The notes under the pieces: generated by a model
The model's database searches: none
What the model saw: only the letters and a program-made list of their open reading frames with translations
Told to the model about the DNA's origin: nothing
Program-made: the position numbers and the translations under genes
Shown: in pieces, positions 2,980 through 15,490 of the stretch
Layout: each line of letters opens with the position of its first letter
Numbering within the stretch: position 1 is the first letter of the stretch
DNA from: Tamlana flava
GTDB taxonomy: Bacteria; Bacteroidota; Bacteroidia; Flavobacteriales; Flavobacteriaceae
DNA length: 24,000 nt
Assembly (NCBI RefSeq): GCF_041287255.1
Contig: NZ_JBGGTX010000002.1
Coordinates: 44,134 to 68,133, forward strand
Direction of reading: 5' to 3'

Positions 2980-5900
2980 ATGTATTTAAACTGTCACACA
3001 TATTACAGCTTGCGGTATGGCACAATTAAGCCAGAAAAACTTCTTGCTATTGCCTGTAAAAATGGTTTGCAAACATTAGCCTTAACCGATATAAACAACA
3101 CATCGGCTTGTTTGGATTTTGTAAGGCTATCTGAAAAATATAAAATAAAACCTGTGTTGGGCATCGATTTTAGAAATGGCGCACAGCAACAATTCATTTT
3201 ACTGGCAAAAAACAATGAAGGGTTTCAAAACATAAATGCTTATCTATCTATATATTTACACAACAATAATCTAAAAATCCCTGAAAGAGCACCCCAATTA
3301 GAGCATACCTTTGTTATTTACCCTTATCAACATCACAAAAATTTCGAATTAAGGGAGAATGAATTTCTGGGCATTAAACCAAAGGATTTAAACAAGCTCA
3401 AATTCTCTAAATGGAATAACTTCCGAAGCAAGCTAGTGGTGCTCCAAACGGTTTCCTTTGAGACAAAAAAAGATTTTAATACACACCGTTTGCTGCGCGC
3501 CATAGACAATAACACCTTATTGAGCAAGCTTCCAAAAAGTGAAGAAGGTAAGCCCTCAGATAGAATGCTTCTGCATGATGAATTGTATGAAACCTATCAG
3601 GAATTTCCAGAGCTTCTTGATAACACCTCAACTATTTTAAATGATTGTAGCATTGCATTTGATTTTTCACAGAAAACACCAAACAATCAAAAATCATTTA
3701 CTGAAAGTGAAGCGTCTGATTACCAATTGCTGGAGAAATTAACTTATGAAGGATTGCCCTATCGCTATGAAAACCCCACGGAAATCATTTATAACCGCAT
3801 TGAAAAAGAGCTTAAAATCATTAAAGAAAAAGGCTTTGTGTCTTATTTCCTTATCAATTGGAAAATTATAACGTACGCCCAAAGCAAAGGTTACTTTTAT
3901 GTTGGCCGTGGTAGTGGCGCGAATAGTATTGTGGCTTATCTACTCCGAATTACTGATGTAGACCCCATAGAACTCGATTTATATTTTGAACGGTTCATTA
4001 ATTTATTCCGGAAAAATCCACCTGATTTTGATATTGATTTTTCATGGACCGACCGTGACGATATTACCAATTTTATTTTTAAAACCTTTAAAAACACAGC
4101 GCTTTTAACCGTATACAATACTTTTAAGTTTAAGGCGTCGGTACGCGAATTAGGAAAAGTGTTCGGTTTGCCCAAAACCGAAATGGATGTGCTTACCCGT
4201 GGGCATTACAACGTAAACGATTTGGATAAATTATCGCAACTTGTATTAATATATAGTAAATATATTCAAGGATTTCCAAACTATCTGGGCATTCATGCTA
4301 GTGGTATTATTATTTCAGAAAAACCAATTCATTATTACACCGCTACCTTTTTGCCCCCTAAAGGCTATGCCACAACACAATTTGATATGATAGTTGCGGA
4401 AGATATTGGACTTTATAAATTTGATATTTTAAGTCAGCGTGGATTGGGAAAAATTAAAGATGCAGTAGAAATTGTAAAGTACAACCATCCCGAAAAAAAA
4501 CCTATAGATATTCATAATATCAAACGTTTCAAACAAGATGAACGCATAAAATATATGCTCAGAAACGCCAAAGCCATTGGTTGTTTTTATGTAGAATCGC
4601 CCGCCATGCGCATGTTGCTTAAAAAGCTGCAAGTAGACACCTATTTGGGCTTGGTTGCGGCCAGTTCCATTATACGTCCAGGTGTTGCAAAATCAGGAAT
4701 GATGCGCGAGTATATTTTACGTTATCGGTATCCCGAACGCTGTAAAAATGGCCATCCGGTTTTACTTAAAATCATGCCCGAAACTTATGGTGTTATGGTG
4801 TATCAGGAAGACGTTATTAAAGTTGCCCATATTTTTGGCGGATTATCTTTAGGTGAAGCTGACAAATTACGCCGAGGTATGTCGGGCAAGTTCCGTTCGC
4901 GCGATGAATTTCTAGCCGTAAAAGACTTATTTTTTGAAAACTGCAGAAAAAAAGGAGAACCCGAAACGGTGATTAATGAAATTTGGAACCAGATAGAAAG
5001 CTTTGCCGGTTATGCTTTTGCAAAAGGGCACTCAGCTTCTTATGCCGTAGAAAGCTATCAAAGTTTGTTTTTAAAAGCTTATTTTCCGTTGGAATATATG
5101 GTAGCCACCATTAATAATTTTGGTGGTTTTTACCGAACCGAACTGTATGTACACGAGGCAAGAATGCATGGCGGCATTATTGAAGCGCCTTGTGTCAATA
5201 TAAGCTTTAATGAAGCCATCATTAAAGACAAAACCATTTATTTGGGCTTTATTTTACTGCATGCTTTAGAAACAAAAACCATAAAAAAAATTATTGCTGA
5301 ACGTCAAAAAAATGGGGTTTTTAAAAGTTTGGATGATTTTATTGAACGCATTCCTATTTCTGTAGAACAAATCTCTATACTTATAAAAATCAATGCATTT
5401 CGTTTTACGGGAATCAATAAACGAGAATTGCTTTGGGAAGCACATTTAAAAATTAGCAAAACCATAGTTGAGGAGCATATTATAAAGTTGTTTAAAACCG
5501 AACGAATAAACTACAAAACGCCAAAACTTTCAAGTACCGATTTAGAGAATGCCTTTGATGAAATGGAGCTTTTGGGTTTCCCGTTATGCAACCCGTTTCA
5601 TTTATTGCAAACACCCACATCAAACCCTTTGCGGGCGAAAAATTTAATCGATTTTCAAAACAAAACCATCACTATTGAAGTTTATTTGGTAGCTACAAAA
5701 AACACCAAAACATCCAATGGAAAAAGCATGCACTTCGGCACGTTTTTAGACTACGATGGCGATTTTATCGATACGGTACACTTTCCGCCAATAGCGGCAA
5801 AATATCCATTCCGTGGAAAAGGCATTTATACCGTTACCGGAAAAGTAATGGTGGAGTTTGATTGTGTGACTATTGAAGTTTCAAGCATGGAACGTGCTGC

Positions 5901-6048
5901 CGTTATTGAAGACCCGCGTTATGCCGTAAATTCTTTGAATCACACCTTTCAGAATAAAAAAAGTTTTGCCGACCATAAAGCAAACCAGCTATCGCCCATG
6001 TTGCCGAAAACATTGGGGCATGCCCAACAAATTTATAATAATCAATAA
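2980..6048 (+). CDS. dnaE2: Error-prone DNA polymerase III alpha-like (DnaE2-type)
   Basis: 1022 aa. The N-terminal PHP start is MYLNCHTYYSLRYGT. Pol III alpha core motifs present are GRGSGANSIVAYLLRITDVDP, PDFDIDF, FESFAGYAFAKGHSASYA and YQEDV. It sits beside a LexA-like repressor and a Y-family polymerase. Confidence 0.85.
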   Translation: MYLNCHTYYSLRYGTIKPEKLLAIACKNGLQTLALTDINNTSACLDFVRLSEKYKIKPVLGIDFRNGAQQQFILLAKNNEGFQNINAYLSIYLHNNNLKIPERAPQLEHTFVIYPYQHHKNFELRENEFLGIKPKDLNKLKFSKWNNFRSKLVVLQTVSFETKKDFNTHRLLRAIDNNTLLSKLPKSEEGKPSDRMLLHDELYETYQEFPELLDNTSTILNDCSIAFDFSQKTPNNQKSFTESEASDYQLLEKLTYEGLPYRYENPTEIIYNRIEKELKIIKEKGFVSYFLINWKIITYAQSKGYFYVGRGSGANSIVAYLLRITDVDPIELDLYFERFINLFRKNPPDFDIDFSWTDRDDITNFIFKTFKNTALLTVYNTFKFKASVRELGKVFGLPKTEMDVLTRGHYNVNDLDKLSQLVLIYSKYIQGFPNYLGIHASGIIISEKPIHYYTATFLPPKGYATTQFDMIVAEDIGLYKFDILSQRGLGKIKDAVEIVKYNHPEKKPIDIHNIKRFKQDERIKYMLRNAKAIGCFYVESPAMRMLLKKLQVDTYLGLVAASSIIRPGVAKSGMMREYILRYRYPERCKNGHPVLLKIMPETYGVMVYQEDVIKVAHIFGGLSLGEADKLRRGMSGKFRSRDEFLAVKDLFFENCRKKGEPETVINEIWNQIESFAGYAFAKGHSASYAVESYQSLFLKAYFPLEYMVATINNFGGFYRTELYVHEARMHGGIIEAPCVNISFNEAIIKDKTIYLGFILLHALETKTIKKIIAERQKNGVFKSLDDFIERIPISVEQISILIKINAFRFTGINKRELLWEAHLKISKTIVEEHIIKLFKTERINYKTPKLSSTDLENAFDEMELLGFPLCNPFHLLQTPTSNPLRAKNLIDFQNKTITIEVYLVATKNTKTSNGKSMHFGTFLDYDGDFIDTVHFPPIAAKYPFRGKGIYTVTGKVMVEFDCVTIEVSSMERAAVIEDPRYAVNSLNHTFQNKKSFADHKANQLSPMLPKTLGHAQQIYNNQ

Positions 6049-6065: not shown

Positions 6066-7283
6066 ATGGGTTACGACCGCTCTATAGTGCACATGGATTT
6101 AGACACATTCTTCGTGTCCTGCGAACGTCTGCTTGATAGTCGATTAATTGGCAAACCCGTACTTATTGGTGGCACTTCCGATAGAGGTGTTGTGGCCTCT
6201 TGTAGCTATGAGGCCCGAAAATTTGGCGTACACTCGGCAATGCCCATGCGCATGGCTAAAATGCTGTGCCCAGAAGCCATCATACTTCGCGGGAATTCTG
6301 GTATTTATACTAAATTTTCACAAAATGTTACTGAAGTTATAAAAGAAACCGTGCCTTTATATGAGAAGACATCCATTGATGAATTCTACATCGACCTCAC
6401 AGGCATGGATAAGTTTTTTGGCTGCCATAAATTGGCTTCAGAACTACGCCAACGTATTATAAAAGAAACCGGGTTGCCCATTTCGTTTGGGCTATCCATC
6501 AACAAAACAGTTTCTAAGATTGCTACTGGAGAAGCCAAACCCAACAATGAAATACGCATTATTTCAGGCACCGAGAAACCATTTTTGGCACCACTTTCAG
6601 TAAAAAAAATACCCATGGTTGGTAATGTTACCTACAAAGCGTTGTGTGATTTAGGGGTAAAACGCATTAAAACTGTGCAAGATATGCCCATGGAACTGAT
6701 GCACCGCGTATTGGGAAAGAATGGATTGAGCATCTGGAAAAAAGCAAATGGCATAGACAACACGCCTGTAATTCAATACCATGAGCGTAAATCTATTTCA
6801 ACCGAACGCACTTTTAACAAAGACACCACCGATGTTGACAAACTAAAAGGCATCATCATTGCCATGGCCGAAAATTTAGCCTACCAATTGCGTCGAGGTA
6901 ATAAATTAACAGCTTGCATTACTTTTAAAATTCGGTATTCCGATTTTCAAACGTACACACAACAACAACGTATTCCATATAGCGCTATGGACCACACTAT
7001 TATTCCCGTGGTTTTGGATTTATACAGAAAACTGTATAACCGCCGACTTTTAGTACGACTTATAGGTGTGAAATTTAGCCACTTAGTTGAAGGCGGGCAT
7101 CAAATAAATCTTTTTGAAGACAACGAAAAACAACTACATTTAAGTCAGGCCATTGATAAAATGCGTGAACGCTATGGCGATAGAGCTGTTATAAACGCCG
7201 CAGGAATGGAAGCCAAGAGCATCAGTAGATGGAACCCGTTTACAGGGGAACCGCCTCCTTTATTGGCCAATAGGCGGCAGTAA
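6066..7283 (+). CDS. dinB: Y-family DNA polymerase IV
   Basis: HMDLDTFFVSCE and SIDEFYIDLT retain the catalytic Asp/Asp-Glu residues. A QINLF clamp-binding-like motif is encoded at 7101-7115. The gap after the dnaE2-like gene is 17 bp. Confidence 0.9.
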   Translation: MGYDRSIVHMDLDTFFVSCERLLDSRLIGKPVLIGGTSDRGVVASCSYEARKFGVHSAMPMRMAKMLCPEAIILRGNSGIYTKFSQNVTEVIKETVPLYEKTSIDEFYIDLTGMDKFFGCHKLASELRQRIIKETGLPISFGLSINKTVSKIATGEAKPNNEIRIISGTEKPFLAPLSVKKIPMVGNVTYKALCDLGVKRIKTVQDMPMELMHRVLGKNGLSIWKKANGIDNTPVIQYHERKSISTERTFNKDTTDVDKLKGIIIAMAENLAYQLRRGNKLTACITFKIRYSDFQTYTQQQRIPYSAMDHTIIPVVLDLYRKLYNRRLLVRLIGVKFSHLVEGGHQINLFEDNEKQLHLSQAIDKMRERYGDRAVINAAGMEAKSISRWNPFTGEPPPLLANRRQ

Positions 7284-7783: not shown

Positions 7784-7990
7784 TTAATCTTCAACATACT
7801 CCAAAATATCGGCTGGTTGGCAATCCAAAGCTTTGAAAATAGCCTCAAGCGTTGAAAACCGTACAGCCTTGGCCTTACCGGATTTTAATATGGAAAGGTT
7901 AGCTTCGGTAATTCCGATAATTTCAGCCAACTCTTTACTTTTCATATCCCGCTTGGCAAGTACAACATCAAGATTTACAATAATGGACAT
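7784..7990 (-). CDS. Small XRE-family HTH transcriptional regulator (YozG-like)
   Basis: 68 aa. MSIIVNLDVVLAKRDMKSKELAEIIGITEANLSILKSGKAKAVRFSTLEAI..CQPADILEY is the typical YozG/COG3655-type sequence. It lies 3 nt downstream of a DUF2975-type gene. Confidence 0.85.
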   Translation of the reverse strand: MSIIVNLDVVLAKRDMKSKELAEIIGITEANLSILKSGKAKAVRFSTLEAIFKALDCQPADILEYVED

Positions 7991-7993
7991 GGC

Positions 7994-8521
7994 TTAACTG
8001 GTTAAATCATTTTCTTCTTTTAGCCTTCTTGCGTTGCTAAAAACTTCACTTAATACTTGGAAAAACAAACCAATGGCTATCCAAACAATGCTAAATTGAA
8101 AATTGTATTCAAATTCATGATGATGGGTAAAACCTCCAGGATGGTAAGTCGTGTAATAATAATTGATGGGAATACAAGAGACCAAAATGAACCCGACCCC
8201 AATTAAAATTAAATACTTGCCAATTCTATGAAACAAATTAATAACAACATTATCAAAAACCTTCAATTCTTGGAACAATAAAATGATTTTACGGAAAAGA
8301 AAGAGGCAATAAACTAAAGCCAAATACAGAGCGAATTCCAATAACGAGGAAATAATTAATCCTGCACCTAGTATAGTGCATTGTTTTCGATCATATTCAA
8401 ACCCAGCAGAATTTATCTTGAGCAAGACAACAATAGCAACTACAGGAACAATAATAACAACGGCTATATTAACATAATAAACAATATCTGCAATCAACTT
8501 AAGTAGGTTGAGTTTTTTCAT
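7994..8521 (-). CDS. DUF2975-type multi-pass membrane protein
   Basis: It has four or more hydrophobic segments and the C-terminal RRLKEENDLTS tail typical of DUF2975. It shows the canonical pairing with a YozG-like HTH. The ATG at 8521 (MKKLNLLKL) is preferred over the TTG-extended start at 8551. Confidence 0.75.
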   Translation of the reverse strand: MKKLNLLKLIADIVYYVNIAVVIIVPVVAIVVLLKINSAGFEYDRKQCTILGAGLIISSLLEFALYLALVYCLFLFRKIILLFQELKVFDNVVINLFHRIGKYLILIGVGFILVSCIPINYYYTTYHPGGFTHHHEFEYNFQFSIVWIAIGLFFQVLSEVFSNARRLKEENDLTS

Positions 8522-8530
8522 ATTTAAAAA

Positions 8531-8579
8531 ATTATCGAATAACAATAACAAATATGTAAATATTATCGAATAACAATAA
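8531..8579. repeat. Two perfect 18-bp direct repeats ATTATCGAATAACAATAA (8531-8548 and 8562-8579), with a partial third TTATCG at 8584-8589
   Basis: Read directly from the sequence. The period is 31 bp, then 21 bp to the partial copy. The spacers are unrelated. The repeats lie in the divergent intergenic region between the DUF2975 operon and bioF. Confidence 0.9.
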
Positions 8580-8634
8580 TTTTTTATCGTAAAAAGATAT
8601 TTTAAAACCTGTTAGCTCTTTGTACCTTTACCAT

Positions 8635-9789
8635 ATGTTTCCAAAAAAACTTCAGCGAAAACTAGACAACCGTAAAGTAGATAACGCCTTTCGAGAGCTT
8701 GGTACACCTTCTAATTTGGTAGATTTTTCATCCAATGATTATTTAGGGTTTTCAAAGTCCGAAAACATTTTTAAAATCGCACATCTGTTTTTAGTTGAGA
8801 ACAACATTAAACAAAATGGGGCAACAGGTTCACGATTGCTATCAGGCAACCATAATTTGTATCATTTGGTCGAAACCGAACTCTGCAGGTTTCACAATAG
8901 TAAAGCTGCCCTGATTTTTAATTCGGGCTATGATGCCAATATTGGTTTTTTTTCAAGTGTACCACAACGCGGTGATATTATTTTTTATGATGAATTGATA
9001 CATGCTTCTATTCGCGATGGAATTTCAATGAGCCATGCAAAATCATATAAATTCAAGCATAATGATTTAGAAGAATTGGAGAGAAAATGTCAGGTTGAGC
9101 GCAATCGAAGTCCATTGGAAACCAATATCTATATCGTTACAGAATCAGTATTTTCAATGGATGGTGATTCCCCCAATCTTACAAAACTTTCTGAACTATG
9201 CGAGAAACACCAAGCCTATTTGGTAGTTGATGAAGCCCATTCCGTTGGTGTTTTTGATAATAATAGGGCAGGGTTAATTCAACAGTTAAAACTTGAACAT
9301 GATGTTTTTGCACGAATCATAACTTTTGGAAAAGCCTTGGGATGCCATGGTGCCGCTATTTTAGGAGACGAAAGTTTAAAACAGTTTTTGGTGAATTTTT
9401 CACGTAGTTTTATTTACACTACGGCACTACCACCACACAGCTTGGCAACCATGTATTCAGCGTACAAAGAATTGTCAAAAACAAAGAAAATCAGTAAGCT
9501 TCAAGAAAACATTATATTCTTTAAAGTCGAAATAGCCCATAAAAATCTTAAAAACCTGTTTATCGAAAGTAATTCTGCTATTCATTGCTGCATTATTTCG
9601 GGTAATGAATATGTAAAAACCATAGCTAAAAAAATTCAAGAAAAAGGTTTTGATGTCAAACCCATTTTATCGCCTACCGTCCCCAAAGGCCAAGAACGAT
9701 TGCGCTTTTGTTTACATGCCTTTAATAGTAAAAAAGAAATTTCGGAAGTCTTGCAACTCTTAGCTAACTTTGCTGTTAAATTTGAATAG
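8635..9789 (+). CDS. bioF: 8-amino-7-oxononanoate synthase
   Basis: FSSNDYLG, DEAHSVG and the PLP-lysine motif TFGKALG are present, in a bio-cluster context. The ATG at 8635 (MFPKKLQ) is preferred over the TTG at 8620. Confidence 0.9.
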   Translation: MFPKKLQRKLDNRKVDNAFRELGTPSNLVDFSSNDYLGFSKSENIFKIAHLFLVENNIKQNGATGSRLLSGNHNLYHLVETELCRFHNSKAALIFNSGYDANIGFFSSVPQRGDIIFYDELIHASIRDGISMSHAKSYKFKHNDLEELERKCQVERNRSPLETNIYIVTESVFSMDGDSPNLTKLSELCEKHQAYLVVDEAHSVGVFDNNRAGLIQQLKLEHDVFARIITFGKALGCHGAAILGDESLKQFLVNFSRSFIYTTALPPHSLATMYSAYKELSKTKKISKLQENIIFFKVEIAHKNLKNLFIESNSAIHCCIISGNEYVKTIAKKIQEKGFDVKPILSPTVPKGQERLRFCLHAFNSKKEISEVLQLLANFAVKFE

Positions 9790-10170
9790 ATGATTGATAA
9801 TTACACCATTTTGGCTGTTTATGAATTTTCAACCGAGGCTCAATTAACAAAATTGAAGTTAGAATCGGAAAATATACGGACAATGTTGGCGGACGAAAAA
9901 ACCATTGATGCCGACCCTTTAATCAGTCAAGCCATAGGTGGTGTTAAGCTTCTTGTGCACAATTGTGACCTTGAAAGAGCCACAGAAATTTACAATGACA
10001 TAAGACTGTATCGCAAAGACAAGGATAATAACGATATTCATTGCCCAAATTGCCATTCAACAAAAATATTAACAGCCCCACCAAGCAACACAAATATTTT
10101 TTACATGCTTTTTCCTTTTTTTGAAAAGCTTAAATACCAGTGCAACAATTGTAAAATGATTTTTAAATGA
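9790..10170 (+). CDS. DUF2007-like (putative signal-transducing fold) protein with a C-terminal CxxC...CxxC zinc ribbon
   Basis: The N-terminal region (YTILAVYEFSTEAQLTKLKLESENI...GGVKLLVHNCDLERATEIY) resembles DUF2007. The C-terminus has CPNC and CNNC pairs. The start abuts the bioF stop (TAGATG) and the stop overlaps the bioD start (ATGA). Confidence 0.6.
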   Translation: MIDNYTILAVYEFSTEAQLTKLKLESENIRTMLADEKTIDADPLISQAIGGVKLLVHNCDLERATEIYNDIRLYRKDKDNNDIHCPNCHSTKILTAPPSNTNIFYMLFPFFEKLKYQCNNCKMIFK

Positions 10171-10775
10171 AAACCTATTTCATCACAGGAATCTCAACCG
10201 ATGTTGGCAAAACTATTGCCTCAGCCATTATAACCGAGGCCTTAGAAGCAGATTATTGGAAACCCGTTCAAGCGGGCGACTTGAACAATTGCGACACAAA
10301 AAAAGTAAAGGCTTTAGTTTCGAACACCAAATCAAAATTCCACCCTAACGCTTATGCTATGCAAACGCCAATGAGTCCGCATGCAGCTGCAAAAATTGAT
10401 GTGGTAAACATTGAGTTAAAAAACATCAAACCCCCGAAAACAAAAAATCATTTGGTCATTGAAGGTGCCGGGGGCCTGCTTGTTCCCTTAAATGACAAAC
10501 AAACAGTGTTCAATCTCGTTAAACCAGACTACAAAGTTATAGTTGTTTCACGGCATTATCTTGGAAGCATAAACCACACCCTTCTGACCACAAACGCCTT
10601 AAAAGAAAAAGGTTTTGATGTTTCAATTATCTTTAGCGGAAATGAGCACGAATCAACAGAGTCCATCATCAAAAAAATGACAAATGTACCCGTCATAGGG
10701 CGAATTGAAGAAGAACCTTATTTCGATAAAAACGTGATTAAAGAATACGCTGAAATGTTTAGAGAGCGCTTATGA
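10167..10775 (+). CDS. bioD: Dethiobiotin synthetase
   Basis: The P-loop GISTDVGKT, YWKPVQAGD and EGAGGLLVP are present, in a bio-cluster context. Confidence 0.93.
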   Translation: MKTYFITGISTDVGKTIASAIITEALEADYWKPVQAGDLNNCDTKKVKALVSNTKSKFHPNAYAMQTPMSPHAAAKIDVVNIELKNIKPPKTKNHLVIEGAGGLLVPLNDKQTVFNLVKPDYKVIVVSRHYLGSINHTLLTTNALKEKGFDVSIIFSGNEHESTESIIKKMTNVPVIGRIEEEPYFDKNVIKEYAEMFRERL

Positions 10776-12037
10776 GTTTGAACGAAAGAGATAAAAAACA
10801 CCTTTGGCACCCACTGACGCAGCATAAATTACATCCAGATGCTATTGCCATTACCAAAGCGAATGGATGCATCTTAACTGATGAAAACGGGAACGAATAC
10901 ATAGATGCGATAGCCTCATGGTACACCTGCATGTATGGGCATTGCAACCCATATATCACCAACAAAGTCATGGGGCAGATGCAACAACTGGATCAAGTGG
11001 TTTTTAGCGGGTTCACCCATGAGCCAGCCATTAAGTTAAGTGAAGAACTAATAAAAATACTACCTGATAATCAAAACAAAATATTCTTTAGTGACAACGG
11101 TTCAACTGCAGTTGAAATTGGTATTAAAATGGCTCTGCAATACCACTTTAACAGTGATGATAAAAAGGACACCTTAATTGCTTTTGAAGACGGATTTCAT
11201 GGTGACACCTTTGGGGCAATGAGTGTTTCAGGATTGTCCGTTTACAATGGCCCTTTTGAAGATTTCTTTTTAACCGTAAAACGGATTCCTGTGCCGAATG
11301 GAAAAAATCATGATGTCATTTTAAAAAACCTTCAAAGTTTGGCTTCAAAAAACAAAGTTGCTGGCTTTGTTTACGAGCCTTTGGTACAAGGGGCTGCAGC
11401 CATGAAAATGCATGATGTAGAGGGCTTGAACATGATATTGAAATTTTGTAAGGATCAAAATATTATCACCGTGGCAGACGAGGTTATGACAGGCTTTGGT
11501 AAAACAGGAAAACATTTCGCATCACTACATCTAGAAAGCCAACCCGATATTATTTGCTTAAGCAAAGCCTTAACTGGCGGATTATTGCCCATGGCGCTTA
11601 CAACCTGCTCCCAAAAAATTTATGCCGCTTTTTACAGTGATGATATTGGAAAAGGGCTCTTCCACGGGCACACCTATTCAGCCAATCCATTGGCTTGTAC
11701 AGCCGCACTGGCAAGTATTGAATTATTACAATCTGAAAACATACAGAGAAATATAACTAGAATTATAAAATCGCATGAAGCTTTCAACAAACGCATAAAA
11801 ATACATCCAAAGGTAAAAGAGACAAGACAAACGGGCGTTATTTTTGCCCTTGATCTAAATGTAGAAATGGAACGCTATGGGAACCTTCGTGATCAGCTTT
11901 TTAAATTCTTTATGGAAAACGGTGTGTTCTTGCGTCCATTAGGAAACACCATTTATATTCAGGCACCCTATTTGATTACTGAAGAACAATTGGAAAAAGT
12001 CTATCGGGTTATTGAAGAATCTTTATCAATAGTGTAA
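10772..12037 (+). CDS. bioA: Adenosylmethionine-8-amino-7-oxononanoate aminotransferase
   Basis: HLWHPLTQH, DEVMTGFGKTG and the PLP-lysine LSKALTGG are present. There is an ATGA overlap with bioD. Confidence 0.95.
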   Translation: MSLNERDKKHLWHPLTQHKLHPDAIAITKANGCILTDENGNEYIDAIASWYTCMYGHCNPYITNKVMGQMQQLDQVVFSGFTHEPAIKLSEELIKILPDNQNKIFFSDNGSTAVEIGIKMALQYHFNSDDKKDTLIAFEDGFHGDTFGAMSVSGLSVYNGPFEDFFLTVKRIPVPNGKNHDVILKNLQSLASKNKVAGFVYEPLVQGAAAMKMHDVEGLNMILKFCKDQNIITVADEVMTGFGKTGKHFASLHLESQPDIICLSKALTGGLLPMALTTCSQKIYAAFYSDDIGKGLFHGHTYSANPLACTAALASIELLQSENIQRNITRIIKSHEAFNKRIKIHPKVKETRQTGVIFALDLNVEMERYGNLRDQLFKFFMENGVFLRPLGNTIYIQAPYLITEEQLEKVYRVIEESLSIV

Positions 12038-12050
12038 ATTTGCAAATTTA
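12035..12050. repeat. Perfect 16-bp palindrome TAAATTTGCAAATTTA spanning the bioA stop codon; it reads as TAnnTTTG on both strands
   Basis: Read directly. The function is unknown. One possibility is an internal promoter for the KAS-like gene and bioB. A perfect 16-mer palindrome is not very improbable in 24 kb of AT-rich DNA. Confidence 0.5.
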
Positions 12051-12052
12051 AC

Positions 12053-12146
12053 GTTCAATCTGAACTCCTGTCTGGCGACATGCAGATGTTTCAGGTTCAC
12101 ATAAAAATTTATGAGATGCTGAAATAAATTCAGCATGACAAAAAAC
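12053..12146. repeat. REP-like hairpin cluster; the 3' unit (12114-12146) is a near-identical copy of 16082-16114
   Basis: GTTCA-ATC-TGAAC lies at 12053-12065 and an imperfect CTGAA...TTCAG hairpin at 12060-12094. An 8-bp stem ATGCTGAA / TTCAGCAT (12116-12136) sits within the 33-nt unit AGATGCTGAAAYAAATTCAGCATGACAWAAAAC. Confidence 0.75.
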
Positions 12147-13304
12147 ATGAACAACCCAATCTCGATAACAGCCATTGCATCTATTTCTCCACTTGGAAAA
12201 ACAACAGATGAAATTTGGAAAACCTACCAAAATAAAAGCCATTGCATTACTAAAAAAATGGTTTCAGGCAAAAATGTTCTGGTTGCCGAAATTTTCGAAG
12301 AAGCAAAAAAAGAGATTGAAAATTTAAAACAATCCGACAACAAATACAGGTCTCTGGATGACACCGTTTTATATGCCATCTATGCATCAAGACAAGCGGT
12401 AAAGCAGTCAGGTTGGACCGCAACCGATAATTTTGGAATCAACATTGGTTCATCACGTGGCGCAACGCAGCTTTTTGAAACCTATCATGAATCCTTTCTA
12501 AAAAACAATAAAGCCGAAACCCTAAGCTCCCCGACCACAACACTGGGTAATATTTCATCTTGGGTGGCACACGATTTACAAACTGAAGGCCCAGAAATCA
12601 GTCATTCCATAACTTGTTCTACAGCCTTGCATGCCATGCTAAACGGCATTGCATGGATAAACTCTAGTATTTGCAACAAATTTTTGGTTGGGGGCAGTGA
12701 AGCACCGATAACACCTTTCACTATTGCGCAAATGCAGGCTTTAAAGATTTACTCAAAAGAAAATCATAAATTTCCCTGTCGTGCACTAGATTTCAATAAA
12801 ACCAAAAACACCATGGTTTTAGGTGAGGGGGCATCAATGGCATGCCTTGAATCGGGAAGTCAAAGAAACGCTCTTGCTTTAATCAATGGTTTTGGTTTTG
12901 CAACGGAAATTTTAGAACACAATATTTCCATTTCGAGTGATGCTAAGTGTTTTCAAAAATCGATGCGTATGGCATTGGACAATATGAACCCAGACGATGT
13001 TGATATTATTGTTATGCATGCGCCAGGAACCATTAAAGGCGATACTTCAGAACACAAAGCTATTGAGGCCGTTTTTAAAACCAATGTTCCAGCTTTAACC
13101 TCCAATAAATGGAAAATTGGCCATACTTTTGGGGCATCGGGTGCCTTAAGTATCGAACTTGCGGTTTTAATGCTTCAATACCAAGAATTTATTGGTATTC
13201 CATATTTAAAACATCAAAAAGCACCAAAAAAAATCGAAAAAATCATGGTAAATGCTGTGGGCTTTGGCGGTAATGCCGTGAGCATTTTATTATCAAAAGC
13301 ATGA
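12135..13304 (+). CDS. Beta-ketoacyl-ACP synthase I/II-like condensing enzyme embedded in the biotin cluster
   Basis: The Cys-His-His triad is intact: ITCSTALHAM (Cys), MHAPGT (His) and KIGHTFGASG (His). The fold-typical end VNAVGFGGNAVSILL is present. The true start may be the second ATG at 12147, because the first ATG lies inside the REP stem. Confidence 0.85.
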   Translation: MTKNMNNPISITAIASISPLGKTTDEIWKTYQNKSHCITKKMVSGKNVLVAEIFEEAKKEIENLKQSDNKYRSLDDTVLYAIYASRQAVKQSGWTATDNFGINIGSSRGATQLFETYHESFLKNNKAETLSSPTTTLGNISSWVAHDLQTEGPEISHSITCSTALHAMLNGIAWINSSICNKFLVGGSEAPITPFTIAQMQALKIYSKENHKFPCRALDFNKTKNTMVLGEGASMACLESGSQRNALALINGFGFATEILEHNISISSDAKCFQKSMRMALDNMNPDDVDIIVMHAPGTIKGDTSEHKAIEAVFKTNVPALTSNKWKIGHTFGASGALSIELAVLMLQYQEFIGIPYLKHQKAPKKIEKIMVNAVGFGGNAVSILLSKA

Positions 13305-13353: not shown

Positions 13354-14448
13354 ATGAGCGCAATCAAACACAATTGGACTAAAGAGGAAATCCTTGATAT
13401 TTACAACAAACCTTTAATGGAACTGCTTTACGAAGCGGCAACAGCACACCGTTTGCACCACGACCCTAATACGGTGCAAGTTAGCACGTTGCTATCCATA
13501 AAAACTGGTGGCTGCCCAGAAGATTGTGGCTACTGCCCACAGGCAGCACGCTACCATACCGATATTGATGGCAACGATTTAATGAGCGTTCAGCAGGTAA
13601 AAGCCCAAGCTTTGCGCGCAAAATCCAGCGGAAGTTCTCGGGTTTGTATGGGTGCAGCTTGGCGGAATGTTAAAGACGGCGAAGAGTTTGATCAAGTATT
13701 GGAAATGGTTCGTACCATCAATAAATTGGACATGGAAGTGTGCTGTACCCTTGGTATGCTTACCGAAAACCAAGCCAAAAGATTAGCCGAAGCAGGTTTG
13801 TACGCCTACAACCATAATTTAGATTCTTCAGAGGAATATTATAAAGAAGTTATTTCCACCAGAGGTTTTAGCGATCGTTTGGAAACCATTGATAATGTTC
13901 GGAAAACCAATGTAACCGTCTGTAGTGGTGGTATTATTGGTATGGGCGAAAAAGTTGAAGATCGCGCCGAAATGTTGGTAGCGCTATCTACATTAAATCC
14001 CCAACCGGAATCGGTACCAATAAATGCTTTGGTTGCTGTTGAAGGCACTCCCCTTGAAGACCAAGAACCTATTTCTATTTGGGACATGGTGCGCATGGTG
14101 GCAACCACGAGAATTGTCATGCCCGAAACGCAAGTGCGCTTAAGTGCAGGCCGTACACAAATGACAAAAGAAGGCCAAGCCATGTGTTTCTTTGCAGGAG
14201 CGAATTCTATTTTTGCTGGGGATAAATTATTGACCACACCAAATCCTGATGTTAATGAGGACATGGAAATGTTCAAACTTTTGGGGTTAAATCCGCAAAA
14301 GCCTTTTATTAAAAAGATGCAGCCCAAAACGGTTGAAGCCCAGGACTCACAATATGAAGCTTTGGGGGAAAAACCGAAATGGAGTAGACCAGAGCACACC
14401 ATTGAGCGCAATGAAGCTGCAAAAGAAAAAGCGAAAATAGCTAAGTAA
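13354..14448 (+). CDS. bioB: Biotin synthase (radical SAM)
   Basis: The CPEDCGYCPQ radical-SAM cluster motif is present, together with MEVCCTLG, YNHNLD, VCSGGIIGMGE and SAGR. Confidence 0.97.
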   Translation: MSAIKHNWTKEEILDIYNKPLMELLYEAATAHRLHHDPNTVQVSTLLSIKTGGCPEDCGYCPQAARYHTDIDGNDLMSVQQVKAQALRAKSSGSSRVCMGAAWRNVKDGEEFDQVLEMVRTINKLDMEVCCTLGMLTENQAKRLAEAGLYAYNHNLDSSEEYYKEVISTRGFSDRLETIDNVRKTNVTVCSGGIIGMGEKVEDRAEMLVALSTLNPQPESVPINALVAVEGTPLEDQEPISIWDMVRMVATTRIVMPETQVRLSAGRTQMTKEGQAMCFFAGANSIFAGDKLLTTPNPDVNEDMEMFKLLGLNPQKPFIKKMQPKTVEAQDSQYEALGEKPKWSRPEHTIERNEAAKEKAKIAK

Positions 14449-14629: not shown

Positions 14630-15490
14630 TTGTCGTTGAACTTACTGGATATTCCGCGGGTAAAAACCATTACCAAAGCCGATTTTTTAGAACATTATTT
14701 TAAACCACAAAAACCTGTGGTCATTGAGCGTTTTATTGAGGATTGGCCTGCTTACACCAAGTGGAATTTAGACTACATTAAGCAAGTTGCCAGAGATATT
14801 ACCATACCTCTTTACGACAACAGACCTGTTTATTATAAAGATGGTTTTAACGAGCCACACGCTAAAATGAAGCTGACCGATTATATTGATCTGTTAAAGC
14901 GGGAGCCCACCAAATACCGTATTTTTTTATGGAATGCCCTAAAGGAAATGCCATCTTTACAACAAGATTTTAAATTTCCTGATTTCGGGTTGCGCCTCAT
15001 TAAAAGCATCCCGATGTTGTTTTTTGGTGGTGAAGACTCTTATACCTTTATGCATTACGATATTGATTTGGCCAATATTTTTCATTTTCATTTTGAGGGC
15101 AAAAAGCGAATCATTTTGTTCGACCAAAATCAGAACAAGTATCTGTATAAAATTCCACATTCCTTAATCACCAGAGAGGATATTGATTTCAATAACCCTG
15201 ATTTTGAAAAATGGCCTATGCTAAAACAGGCCAACGGCTACCAAACAGAACTGAGCCATGGCGAGGTGTTATATATGCCCGAAGGTTATTGGCACTATAT
15301 GCGCTACATTACCCCAGGGTTTTCAATGAGTTTGCGCGCCATTGCGCGAAACCCAAAAAACTTTGGCAAAGCAGTTTACAATGTTTTTATTATGCGCAAT
15401 TTCGACAACATTATGAGGCGCATAAAAAAACAAAAATGGATTGACTGGAAAAACCAACAGGCCATCATCAATACACACAAGCATTTGTAG
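14630..15490 (+). CDS. JmjC/cupin-like 2OG-Fe(II) oxygenase family protein
   Basis: The cupin_8/JmjC-like layout starts with DFLEHYFKPQKPVVIERFIEDWPAYTKW. HxD occurs in FMHYDID and the distal His in EGYWHYM. The frame has no ATG before the conserved N-terminus, so the start is probably TTG at 14630 or 14636. Confidence 0.75.
   Translation: MSLNLLDIPRVKTITKADFLEHYFKPQKPVVIERFIEDWPAYTKWNLDYIKQVARDITIPLYDNRPVYYKDGFNEPHAKMKLTDYIDLLKREPTKYRIFLWNALKEMPSLQQDFKFPDFGLRLIKSIPMLFFGGEDSYTFMHYDIDLANIFHFHFEGKKRIILFDQNQNKYLYKIPHSLITREDIDFNNPDFEKWPMLKQANGYQTELSHGEVLYMPEGYWHYMRYITPGFSMSLRAIARNPKNFGKAVYNVFIMRNFDNIMRRIKKQKWIDWKNQQAIINTHKHL

Follow-up and report, generated by a model that had tools for sequence, protein, structure and literature searches.

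Within a 24,000-nucleotide stretch of the Tamlana flava genome (Flavobacteriaceae; contig NZ_JBGGTX010000002.1 of assembly GCF_041287255.1; hereafter the window, to which all coordinates refer), the biotin gene cluster includes a gene for a divergent condensing enzyme of the 3-ketoacyl-acyl carrier protein synthase (KAS) I/II type, which we consider a strong candidate for the missing pimelate-supplying enzyme. Of the steps of biotin synthesis, those that supply the pimelate moiety vary between bacteria and are still incompletely known; in curated reconstructions, dozens of species possess bioF, bioA, bioD and bioB and yet have no recognised source of pimelate (PMC6593275). The reading that we favour, and to which we give about an even chance of being correct, is that this KAS-like enzyme would be the source of the pimeloyl thioester for biotin in Flavobacteriaceae and Cytophagales, via a route in which a glutaryl primer is elongated with its carboxylate free. 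The evidence comes from the fold and catalytic residues of the enzyme, from polar substitutions that include an arginine in place of FabF Ile108, and from a conserved linkage of the gene to biotin genes.

Fold, catalytic residues and pocket of the KAS-like enzyme

The protein carries both ketoacyl-synthase domains (PF00109 and PF02801, with Pfam E-values of 9e-24 and 2e-16, respectively), and no FabH or KAS III model in Pfam or NCBIfam matches it. Its AlphaFold2 model, built with 63 homologues, has a mean predicted local distance difference test (pLDDT) score of 91 and a predicted template modelling score of 0.93, and a Foldseek search returned FabF structures as the top PDB matches, with TM (template modelling) scores of 0.87-0.90 at 20-25% identity. 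The assignment to the KAS I/II type rather than the FabH/BioZ type, proposed in an earlier sequence-only reading of the window, is therefore borne out by the Pfam and NCBIfam matches, by alignment and by the FabF-like fold. The protein is nevertheless about 25 residues shorter than FabF and scores 159 bits with the FabF model TIGR03150 (cut-off 493.75) and 89 bits with the FabB model NF005935 (cut-off 630); FabFs in the PDB score about 100 bits against it by sequence. Its NCBI name stays generic, and so no curated family claims it. A protein search that covered 1.8 billion representative proteins, clustered at 50% identity, gave 453 such clusters at E-values up to 1e-30, of which the best 150 span 576 to 243 bits, well above the roughly 100 bits of FabF. 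Judged by these scores, the protein belongs to a distinct family.

The gene and the residues on which the argument turns are as follows, numbered from the probable start, with E. coli FabF and FabB from the MG1655 record as reference sequences for the mapping.

12135-13304, + strand: open reading frame (ORF) of the KAS-like gene, probable start 12147; divergent KAS I/II-type condensing enzyme of 385 aa with PF00109 and PF02801
12453-12467, + strand: signature S103-R104-G-A-T107, with Arg104 at the FabF back-gate Ile108 position by alignment
12528-12551, + strand: signature S128-P-T-T-T132-L-G-N135, which replaces FabF V134-P-S-T-I138-V-N-M141
12615-12617, + strand: codon of the active-site Cys157, the equivalent of FabF C163, invariant in the family alignments
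13017-13124, + strand: decarboxylation residues His291 (13017-13019), Lys321 (13107-13109) and His326 (13122-13124), the equivalents of FabF H303, K335 and H340, invariant in all alignments

Residues C157, H291, K321, H326 and F373 correspond to FabF C163, H303, K335, H340 and F400, and the gating loop G372-F373-G374-G375 aligns with FabF G399-G402. Because the cysteine, both histidines, the lysine and the phenylalanine of this GFGG loop are all present, and are invariant across members at 36-81% identity, the protein is very probably an active decarboxylating condensing enzyme. The full Cys-His-His triad that had been read from the motifs SITCSTALHAM, MHAPGT and KIGHTFGASG is likewise found in the translation and is predicted to be catalytic. 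We considered and rejected the possibility that the gene is a pseudogene; it is complete and free of stop codons at 169 related loci.

The family differs from FabF at a set of aligned positions, where the motifs GSSRGAT and SPTTTLGN occupy the places of FabF GSGIGGL and VPSTIVNM. The substitutions in the family, with T. flava residue numbers in brackets, are:

FabF Ile108 to Arg (Arg104)
FabF Leu111 to Thr
FabF Val134 to Ser
FabF Ile138 to Thr
FabF Met141 to Asn
FabF Ala162 to Thr
FabF Phe202 to Met (Met196)

The FabF residues at positions 111, 134, 138, 141 and 162 line the acyl pocket. Within the family alignments S128, P129, T132 and N135 are invariant; GSSRGAT reads in 329 of the 359 family proteins that have a motif of such form (among 386 proteins), and arginine stands at the Ile108 position in 168 of the 169 related genes, a position at which FabB has glycine. 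In FabF, the acyl pocket has a back gate, formed by Ile108 and Phe202, at the depth that a bound chain reaches with about C7-C8; an Ile108Phe exchange limits elongation to C6-C8, and the methyl ester of glutaryl-acyl carrier protein (ACP) reaches about back-gate depth (PMC9006962, a review of stand-alone ketosynthases). An arginine at this gate should, we infer, shut the pocket to long hydrophobic chains and provide a counter-charge a few carbons from the catalytic cysteine. The suggestion, made when the window was first read, that the enzyme elongates a dicarboxylate primer thus gains independent support from the arginine at the Ile108 position and from the polar residues at aligned pocket positions.

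Conserved linkage to the biotin genes

The KAS-like gene lies between bioA and bioB in a cluster whose order, bioF, small ORF, bioD, bioA, KAS-like gene, bioB, had been proposed from the translations and is confirmed by the ORF coordinates and the Pfam and NCBIfam matches. The other members of the cluster are:

8620-9789, + strand: BioF-type alpha-oxoamine synthase (8-amino-7-oxononanoate synthase), PF00155 at E 7.9e-42; consumer of pimeloyl-ACP or pimeloyl-coenzyme A (CoA)
9790-10170, + strand: ORF of 126 aa, with a weak DUF2007-like N-terminal part (Pfam E 3.7e-4, under the cut-off) and a C-terminal CxxC...CxxC zinc-ribbon-like end
10167-10775, + strand: bioD, dethiobiotin synthase (TIGR00347, 113 bits against a cut-off of 83)
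10772-12037, + strand: bioA, S-adenosylmethionine (SAM):7-keto-8-aminopelargonic acid (KAPA) aminotransferase (TIGR00508, 537 bits against a cut-off of 405)
13354-14448, + strand: bioB, biotin synthase (TIGR00433, 406 bits against a cut-off of 225)

The top NCBIfam match of the first of these genes is TIGR00858 (bioF), at 329 bits, under its cut-off of 426 bits, and a BioF-type gene opens the cluster in 71 of 80 related loci. The overlaps of 4 nt that bioD has with both of its neighbours, the 126-aa ORF and bioA, suggest translational coupling; the gap between bioA and the KAS-like gene is about 100 nt, and 49 nt separate the KAS stop from the bioB start. A terminator scan found no terminator-like sites between bioA, the KAS-like gene and bioB, and the promoter and terminator scans, which do not model Bacteroidota promoters, gave nothing above chance. 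The real start of the KAS-like gene is probably the second ATG, at 12147, because its homologues, and the identical NCBI protein of Tamlana flava (P0001, 100% identity), are 384-385 aa long. A short inverted repeat (TGCTGAAATAAATTCAGCA, 12108-12140), possibly a chance match, ends at the first ATG of the ORF, upstream of this probable start. Retained between bioF and bioD in 51 of the 80 Flavobacteriaceae loci and missing from the Cytophagales clusters, the 126-aa ORF may encode an accessory protein or a regulator connected with biotin.

That the window lacks the known pimelate genes was also as the earlier reading had it: a Pfam scan of ORFs of at least 100 aa, minus those nested within larger assigned genes on the opposite strand, found no SAM methyltransferase, alpha/beta-hydrolase, P450, acyl-CoA ligase, KAS III or ferritin-like oxygenase, and so none of a known pimelate route.

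Conservation of the neighbourhood was followed in relatives by scanning one genome per species with an 8-sequence alignment as seed; at least 597 genomes encode a relative, and the best 80 loci were studied. Together with 80 metagenome loci and 9 exact look-ups these make up the 169 related loci, of which 120 have at least 3 kb on each side of the gene and were used for the linkage counts. The best 80 genome loci are all from Flavobacteriaceae, at 63-81% identity across genera. In 113 of the 120 loci bioA and/or bioB adjoin the KAS gene: bioA lies upstream on the same strand in 108 (within 300 nt in 80 of these), with a median gap of 106 nt, and bioB lies downstream in 78. The linkage thus holds as the sequence-only reading expected, and it extends to Cytophagales with a different gene order. 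At least four orders are known:

bioF-(orf)-bioD-bioA-KAS-bioB: the order of Tamlana
bioF-bioD-bioA-KAS, with bioB several kilobases off on the other strand: many Flavobacterium species
bioB-bioF-bioD-bioA-KAS: Pontibacter and other Cytophagales
KAS-bioB pairs amid unrelated genes (carboxypeptidase, ATP synthase subunits, seryl-tRNA synthetase)

The cluster tolerates insertions at two joints, that of KAS with bioB and that of bioD with bioA. Taken as observed, the KAS-like gene is a real, conserved feature on which selection acts, and within Bacteroidota its association with biotin genes is robust.

Around the two-gene KAS-bioB units (loci L103, L144, L165, L167 and L019), bioF, bioD and bioA are all missing for 10 kb; the genes beside them are those of an M14 carboxypeptidase, of the alpha and gamma subunits of ATP synthase and of a DAO oxidoreductase, and serS. 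The organisms may carry bioFDA elsewhere, or may do no more than salvage dethiobiotin. A pair encoding an NfeD-like membrane protein and a flotillin/band-7-like protein stands between KAS and bioB in 24-25 Flavobacteriaceae genomes (L011, L016, L017, L027, L028, L030 and about 20 more), and ArnT-like membrane proteins sit between bioD and bioA in other genomes, all of these labels having been given by reading the sequences, without Pfam. Read in the same way, the inserted genes (NfeD-like and flotillin, ArnT-like, a GIY-YIG protein, and a secreted alpha/beta-hydrolase in 3 loci) were considered as missing partners and rejected, as none resembles bioC or an esterase. Clustering of all ORFs within 10 kb on each side in the 80 genome loci revealed no recurrent methyltransferase, esterase, ACP, reductase or dehydratase (no fabG or fabZ); the recurrent neighbours were, by inspection, housekeeping genes (an ATP synthase subunit, mutY, ssb, HU, rpoN and ribF). 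No ACP, FabG-like or FabZ-like gene was seen in the Cytophagales loci, and no BioE-like gene in the window or in the related loci. The other known routes (BioC plus an esterase, BioW, BioI and BioZ) are likewise absent from the window and from the flanks read, of up to 10 kb.

A proposed free-carboxylate route to pimeloyl-ACP and its rivals

The known pimelate sources listed when the window was first read (BioC plus an esterase, BioI, BioW and BioZ) were incomplete, since BioE was omitted: this ferritin-like diiron oxygenase, which cleaves long acyl chains and makes up a fourth characterised route, operates in Weeksellaceae and has been reported in Flavobacteriaceae and other families (PMC12704756, PMC12915131). 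Like BioE, which supplies the pimeloyl moiety without BioC or BioH, the KAS-like gene is a lineage-specific extra gene in a bio cluster (BioE in Weeksellaceae, a related family likewise placed in Flavobacteriales), and yet the two are unrelated in fold and chemistry, as BioE cuts long acyl chains oxidatively. The accompanying remark that no KAS I/II-type biotin enzyme was known overlooks DVU2563 of Desulfovibrio vulgaris, which has been validated at the genetic level (PMC10102598). This FabF-annotated gene lies in the bio cluster DVU2558-2565 and was required for growth without biotin in random barcode transposon-site sequencing (RB-TnSeq), as were the ACP, FabG-like and FabZ-like genes of the same cluster; it has been proposed that pimeloyl-ACP is made there by elongating malonyl-ACP with no methyl ester involved, in active sites that may be less hydrophobic (PMC10102598, which cites Rodionov 2004 and Lin & Cronan 2011 for earlier proposals). 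Compared by published description, DVU2563 resembles the KAS-like gene in being a KAS I/II-type gene amid bioF, bioA, bioD and bioB, in an organism without bioC or bioH, and in having been inferred to act on free-carboxylate intermediates, with active sites that the authors suggest to be less hydrophobic than those of fatty acid synthesis homologues (PMC10102598). The Desulfovibrio system is, in contrast, built of five parts (the KAS, an ACP of its own, one FabG-like protein, two proteins similar to FabZ and a nitroreductase-like gene) and has been reported only from a few anaerobic phyla, whereas a stand-alone KAS is found here, in aerobic Bacteroidota: within 10 kb, the KAS gene was not clustered with recurrent ACP, FabG-like or FabZ-like genes in the 80 genome loci. 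We found no description of a stand-alone ketosynthase of this kind from Flavobacteriaceae or Cytophagales in the literature searched, which left subscription journals outside.

A close functional parallel is BioZ of alpha-proteobacteria, a KAS III/FabH-type synthase that condenses a glutaryl thioester with malonyl-ACP, where a condensing enzyme is likewise the only extra gene in the bio cluster. BioZ works without BioC or an esterase and its product enters the reduction steps of the housekeeping FAS II (type II synthesis of fatty acids), and the same would apply to the KAS-like enzyme; since bioZ alone replaces bioC and bioH in E. coli (PMC7645780, PMC8024396), housekeeping fatty acid synthesis enzymes therefore accept free-carboxylate C7 intermediates. 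In BioZ, a conserved set at the tunnel bottom, Ser84, Arg147 and Ser287, has been proposed to neutralise glutaryl-CoA's free carboxylate (PMC8024396), and the arginine with its Ser/Thr/Asn set in the KAS-like pocket may be a counterpart of this site. Unlike BioZ, which has the FabH fold and a Cys-His-Asn triad and has been characterised biochemically and structurally, the KAS-like enzyme has a FabF-like fold with Cys-His-His and Lys, and is known here from its sequence and a model.

In the route that we favour, a short acyl primer whose omega-carboxylate is free (glutaryl-ACP or glutaryl-CoA being the likeliest) would be loaded on Cys157, and its carboxylate would be held and neutralised by Arg104 together with the surrounding Ser, Thr and Asn residues that replace the hydrophobic gate and pocket of FabF. 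Malonyl-ACP would then be decarboxylated by His291, His326 and Lys321, and a Claisen condensation would give 3-oxopimeloyl-ACP, which the housekeeping FabG, FabZ and FabI could reduce to pimeloyl-ACP for BioF. The methyl-ester disguise provided by BioC and its esterase would become unnecessary, by the logic of BioZ but from a different branch of the thiolase superfamily. We prefer glutaryl over two rounds starting from malonyl on indirect grounds, because a single gene is added, because bioZ alone suffices in E. coli, and because Desulfovibrio, which is proposed to start from malonyl, carries its own ACP, reductase and dehydratases.

Several points weigh against this glutaryl-primed route. The usual primers of KAS I/II enzymes are bound to ACP, and nothing points to a source of glutaryl-ACP; BioE has been reported in some Flavobacteriaceae (PMC12915131); and the placement of Arg104 in the pocket depends on the alignment with FabF, loop residues 101-140 being those of lowest model confidence (pLDDT 68-84). 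The synteny of the wider region is conserved in Flavobacteriaceae (dinB, recX and a cupin gene recur), so that shared ancestry inflates the counts and many of the 113 linked loci are not independent. Moreover, 7 of the 120 loci have no bio gene nearby, as follows:

Polyangiaceae metagenome-assembled genome (MAG; L081) and two other high-GC contigs, one of them L087
Capnocytophaga haemolytica, with the KAS gene beside secE-nusG
Flavobacterium dankookense (L062, KAS gene at 10001-11158) and a related MAG (L079)
Locus L124

All seven keep the arginine pocket. Either their bio genes are scattered or the chemistry of the family serves more than biotin; if F. dankookense and the related MAG were without any bio genes, this would argue against a role in biotin synthesis only. 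Capnocytophaga and Myroides are predicted to be biotin prototrophs (a binary call; PMC6593275).

As to the surroundings of these genes, in F. dankookense and the related MAG an intact KAS gene lies next to recX, with purN and rnhA in place of the bioF-bioD-bioA block of other Flavobacterium and with acpP-fabF-rnc preceding on the opposite strand. In locus L087 (9036-11847; high GC, outside Bacteroidota), the neighbours of KAS are a PlsC/DAGAT-type acyltransferase and a DUF1801 protein, and in the Polyangiaceae MAG (8584-12084) KAS is accompanied by genes for a 422-aa protein without annotation and for a CBM_48 protein, a pair that is found again on a second contig (L082). These other neighbours in high-GC members hint at a different or additional use of the arginine-pocket chemistry. 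A metagenome scan for members outside Bacteroidota gave mostly further Bacteroidota, and its high-GC matches stood on contigs of 1.4-3.5 kb without context.

How the pocket and the gene neighbourhoods bear on other explanations can be seen from the route closest to our own, in which malonyl-ACP would serve as an undecarboxylated primer and the KAS-like enzyme would carry out both condensations, from malonyl to 3-oxoglutaryl and from glutaryl to 3-oxopimeloyl, with the arginine pocket carrying the carboxylate at both lengths. Such a route, without methyl esters, would follow the logic proposed for D. vulgaris, where all genes of the cluster are needed for biotin (PMC10102598); it would need no external glutaryl-CoA, would use the ACP thioesters that are usual for KAS I/II enzymes, and fits a polarity that spans several aligned pocket positions beyond Arg104. 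We nonetheless think it unlikely, given that the dedicated ACP, FabG-like and FabZ-like genes of Desulfovibrio recur nowhere within 10 kb in the 169 loci, and that housekeeping FabG, FabZ and FabI would have to handle C5 free-carboxylate intermediates, the very problem that methylation by BioC is thought to solve (PMC10102598). The enzyme might instead assist a BioC-esterase pathway encoded elsewhere in the genome, as a dedicated KAS that elongates the methyl esters of malonyl- and/or glutaryl-ACP better than FabF or FabB do. Long-chain KAS enzymes of E. coli perform both condensations, with glutaryl-ACP methyl ester reaching the back-gate region (PMC9006962), and other Bacteroidota (Bacteroides) use BioC with BioG (PMC3494674). 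A neutral methyl ester, however, mimics an ordinary acyl chain and does not call for an invariant arginine in a Ser/Thr/Asn pocket, and neither bioC nor an esterase gene was clustered with the KAS gene in any of the 169 loci, whereas B. fragilis has a BioG-BioC fusion (PMC3494674); a helper of this kind therefore seems improbable to us.

We assign a similarly low probability to a role outside biotin synthesis, in which the enzyme would make another polar or carboxylated acyl product (for a lipid, a polyketide or a cofactor precursor) and would owe its place beside bio genes to inherited synteny or to being co-regulated with the biotin-dependent supply of malonyl-CoA. The unlinked members (L081, L086, L087 with its acyltransferase, Capnocytophaga and F. 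dankookense) and the conserved general synteny around the cluster speak for such a role. On the other hand, the linkage outlasts rearrangements (among them a different gene order in another bacterial order, and KAS-bioB pairs with unrelated surroundings), the KAS gene has no recurrent partner from another pathway beside it, and the missing linkage in high-GC members is weak evidence because biotin genes are often scattered in such genomes.

That the gene is an ordinary FabF/FabB paralogue for bulk fatty acid synthesis, an assignment that we tried and rejected, is very improbable. The enzyme does share the fold, the catalytic Cys-His-His-Lys set and the gating phenylalanine of the GFGG loop with FabF/KAS II (E. 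coli b1095; PDB 2GFW), but at the low identity given above its scores (159 against 494 bits for FabF, 89 against 630 for FabB) fall far under the cut-offs, and, besides the exchange of Phe202 for Met and of several hydrophobic positions for Ser, Thr or Asn, arginine in place of Ile108 should block or disfavour long hydrophobic chains. Unlike fabF, moreover, the gene is linked to bio genes, not to acpP or fabG. F. dankookense also has, 2 kb away from the KAS gene, a separate and canonical fabF-acpP pair whose FabF keeps Ile108 and Phe202, and because the two coexist, the KAS-like gene is not the housekeeping synthase.

Neighbouring genes and wider significance

Directly after bioB the window has a Cupin_8/JmjC-like gene (14630-15490, + strand; Pfam E 1.6e-31, no NCBIfam family, HxD...H-type metal ligands). 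It follows bioB in 44 of the 80 genome loci and in many metagenome loci, with two copies in L140, and it does not accompany the KAS gene where bioB sits elsewhere; its adjacency to bioB could be inherited synteny or could mark an unrecognised bioB partner. On the other side of the cluster, a gene pair for a Cro/C1-type HTH_26 protein and a DUF2975 membrane protein (7784-8551, - strand) is divergent from bioF at a distance of 68 nt and recurs upstream of bioF in many related loci; it could be a pair of regulators, or the arrangement may be no more than conserved synteny. What looks like a cassette for SOS mutagenesis lies a short way upstream of the bio cluster and consists of a gene for a LexA-like helix-turn-helix protein with an S24 peptidase domain (2132-2902, - strand), a DnaE2-like polymerase gene (2980-6048) and an ImuB/DinB-like gene of the IMS family (6066-7283). 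The other sizeable ORFs of the window encode, by Pfam, an ATP synthase beta subunit, outer-membrane and secreted proteins, RecX, RecO and a TonB-dependent receptor.

Of the elements described here, the condensing enzyme that works without a methyl ester is of a kind already known from BioZ and from the Desulfovibrio module; what is new is the invariant arginine at the FabF Ile108 position with its polar neighbours. Somewhat short of even is the chance we give to the wider proposition that a stand-alone ketosynthase of FabF fold, with an arginine-lined carboxylate pocket, would make pimeloyl-ACP from a free dicarboxylate primer as a fifth or sixth route, would be the pimelate source of most Flavobacteriaceae and many Cytophagales, and would have arisen convergently with BioZ.

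If this is true, it would correct genome-based predictions of auxotrophy, and biotin production engineering would gain a one-gene part. It would also be the second independent case, after BioZ, of a condensing enzyme recruited to bypass the methyl-ester disguise, and would indicate that a handful of substitutions, centred on the exchange of Ile108 for Arg, can adapt a pocket of FabF type to charged substrates. Flavobacteriia have been reported among the main marine biotin prototrophs (PMC9561691), and the enzyme would fill the missing-gene gap for a large and ecologically important clade.

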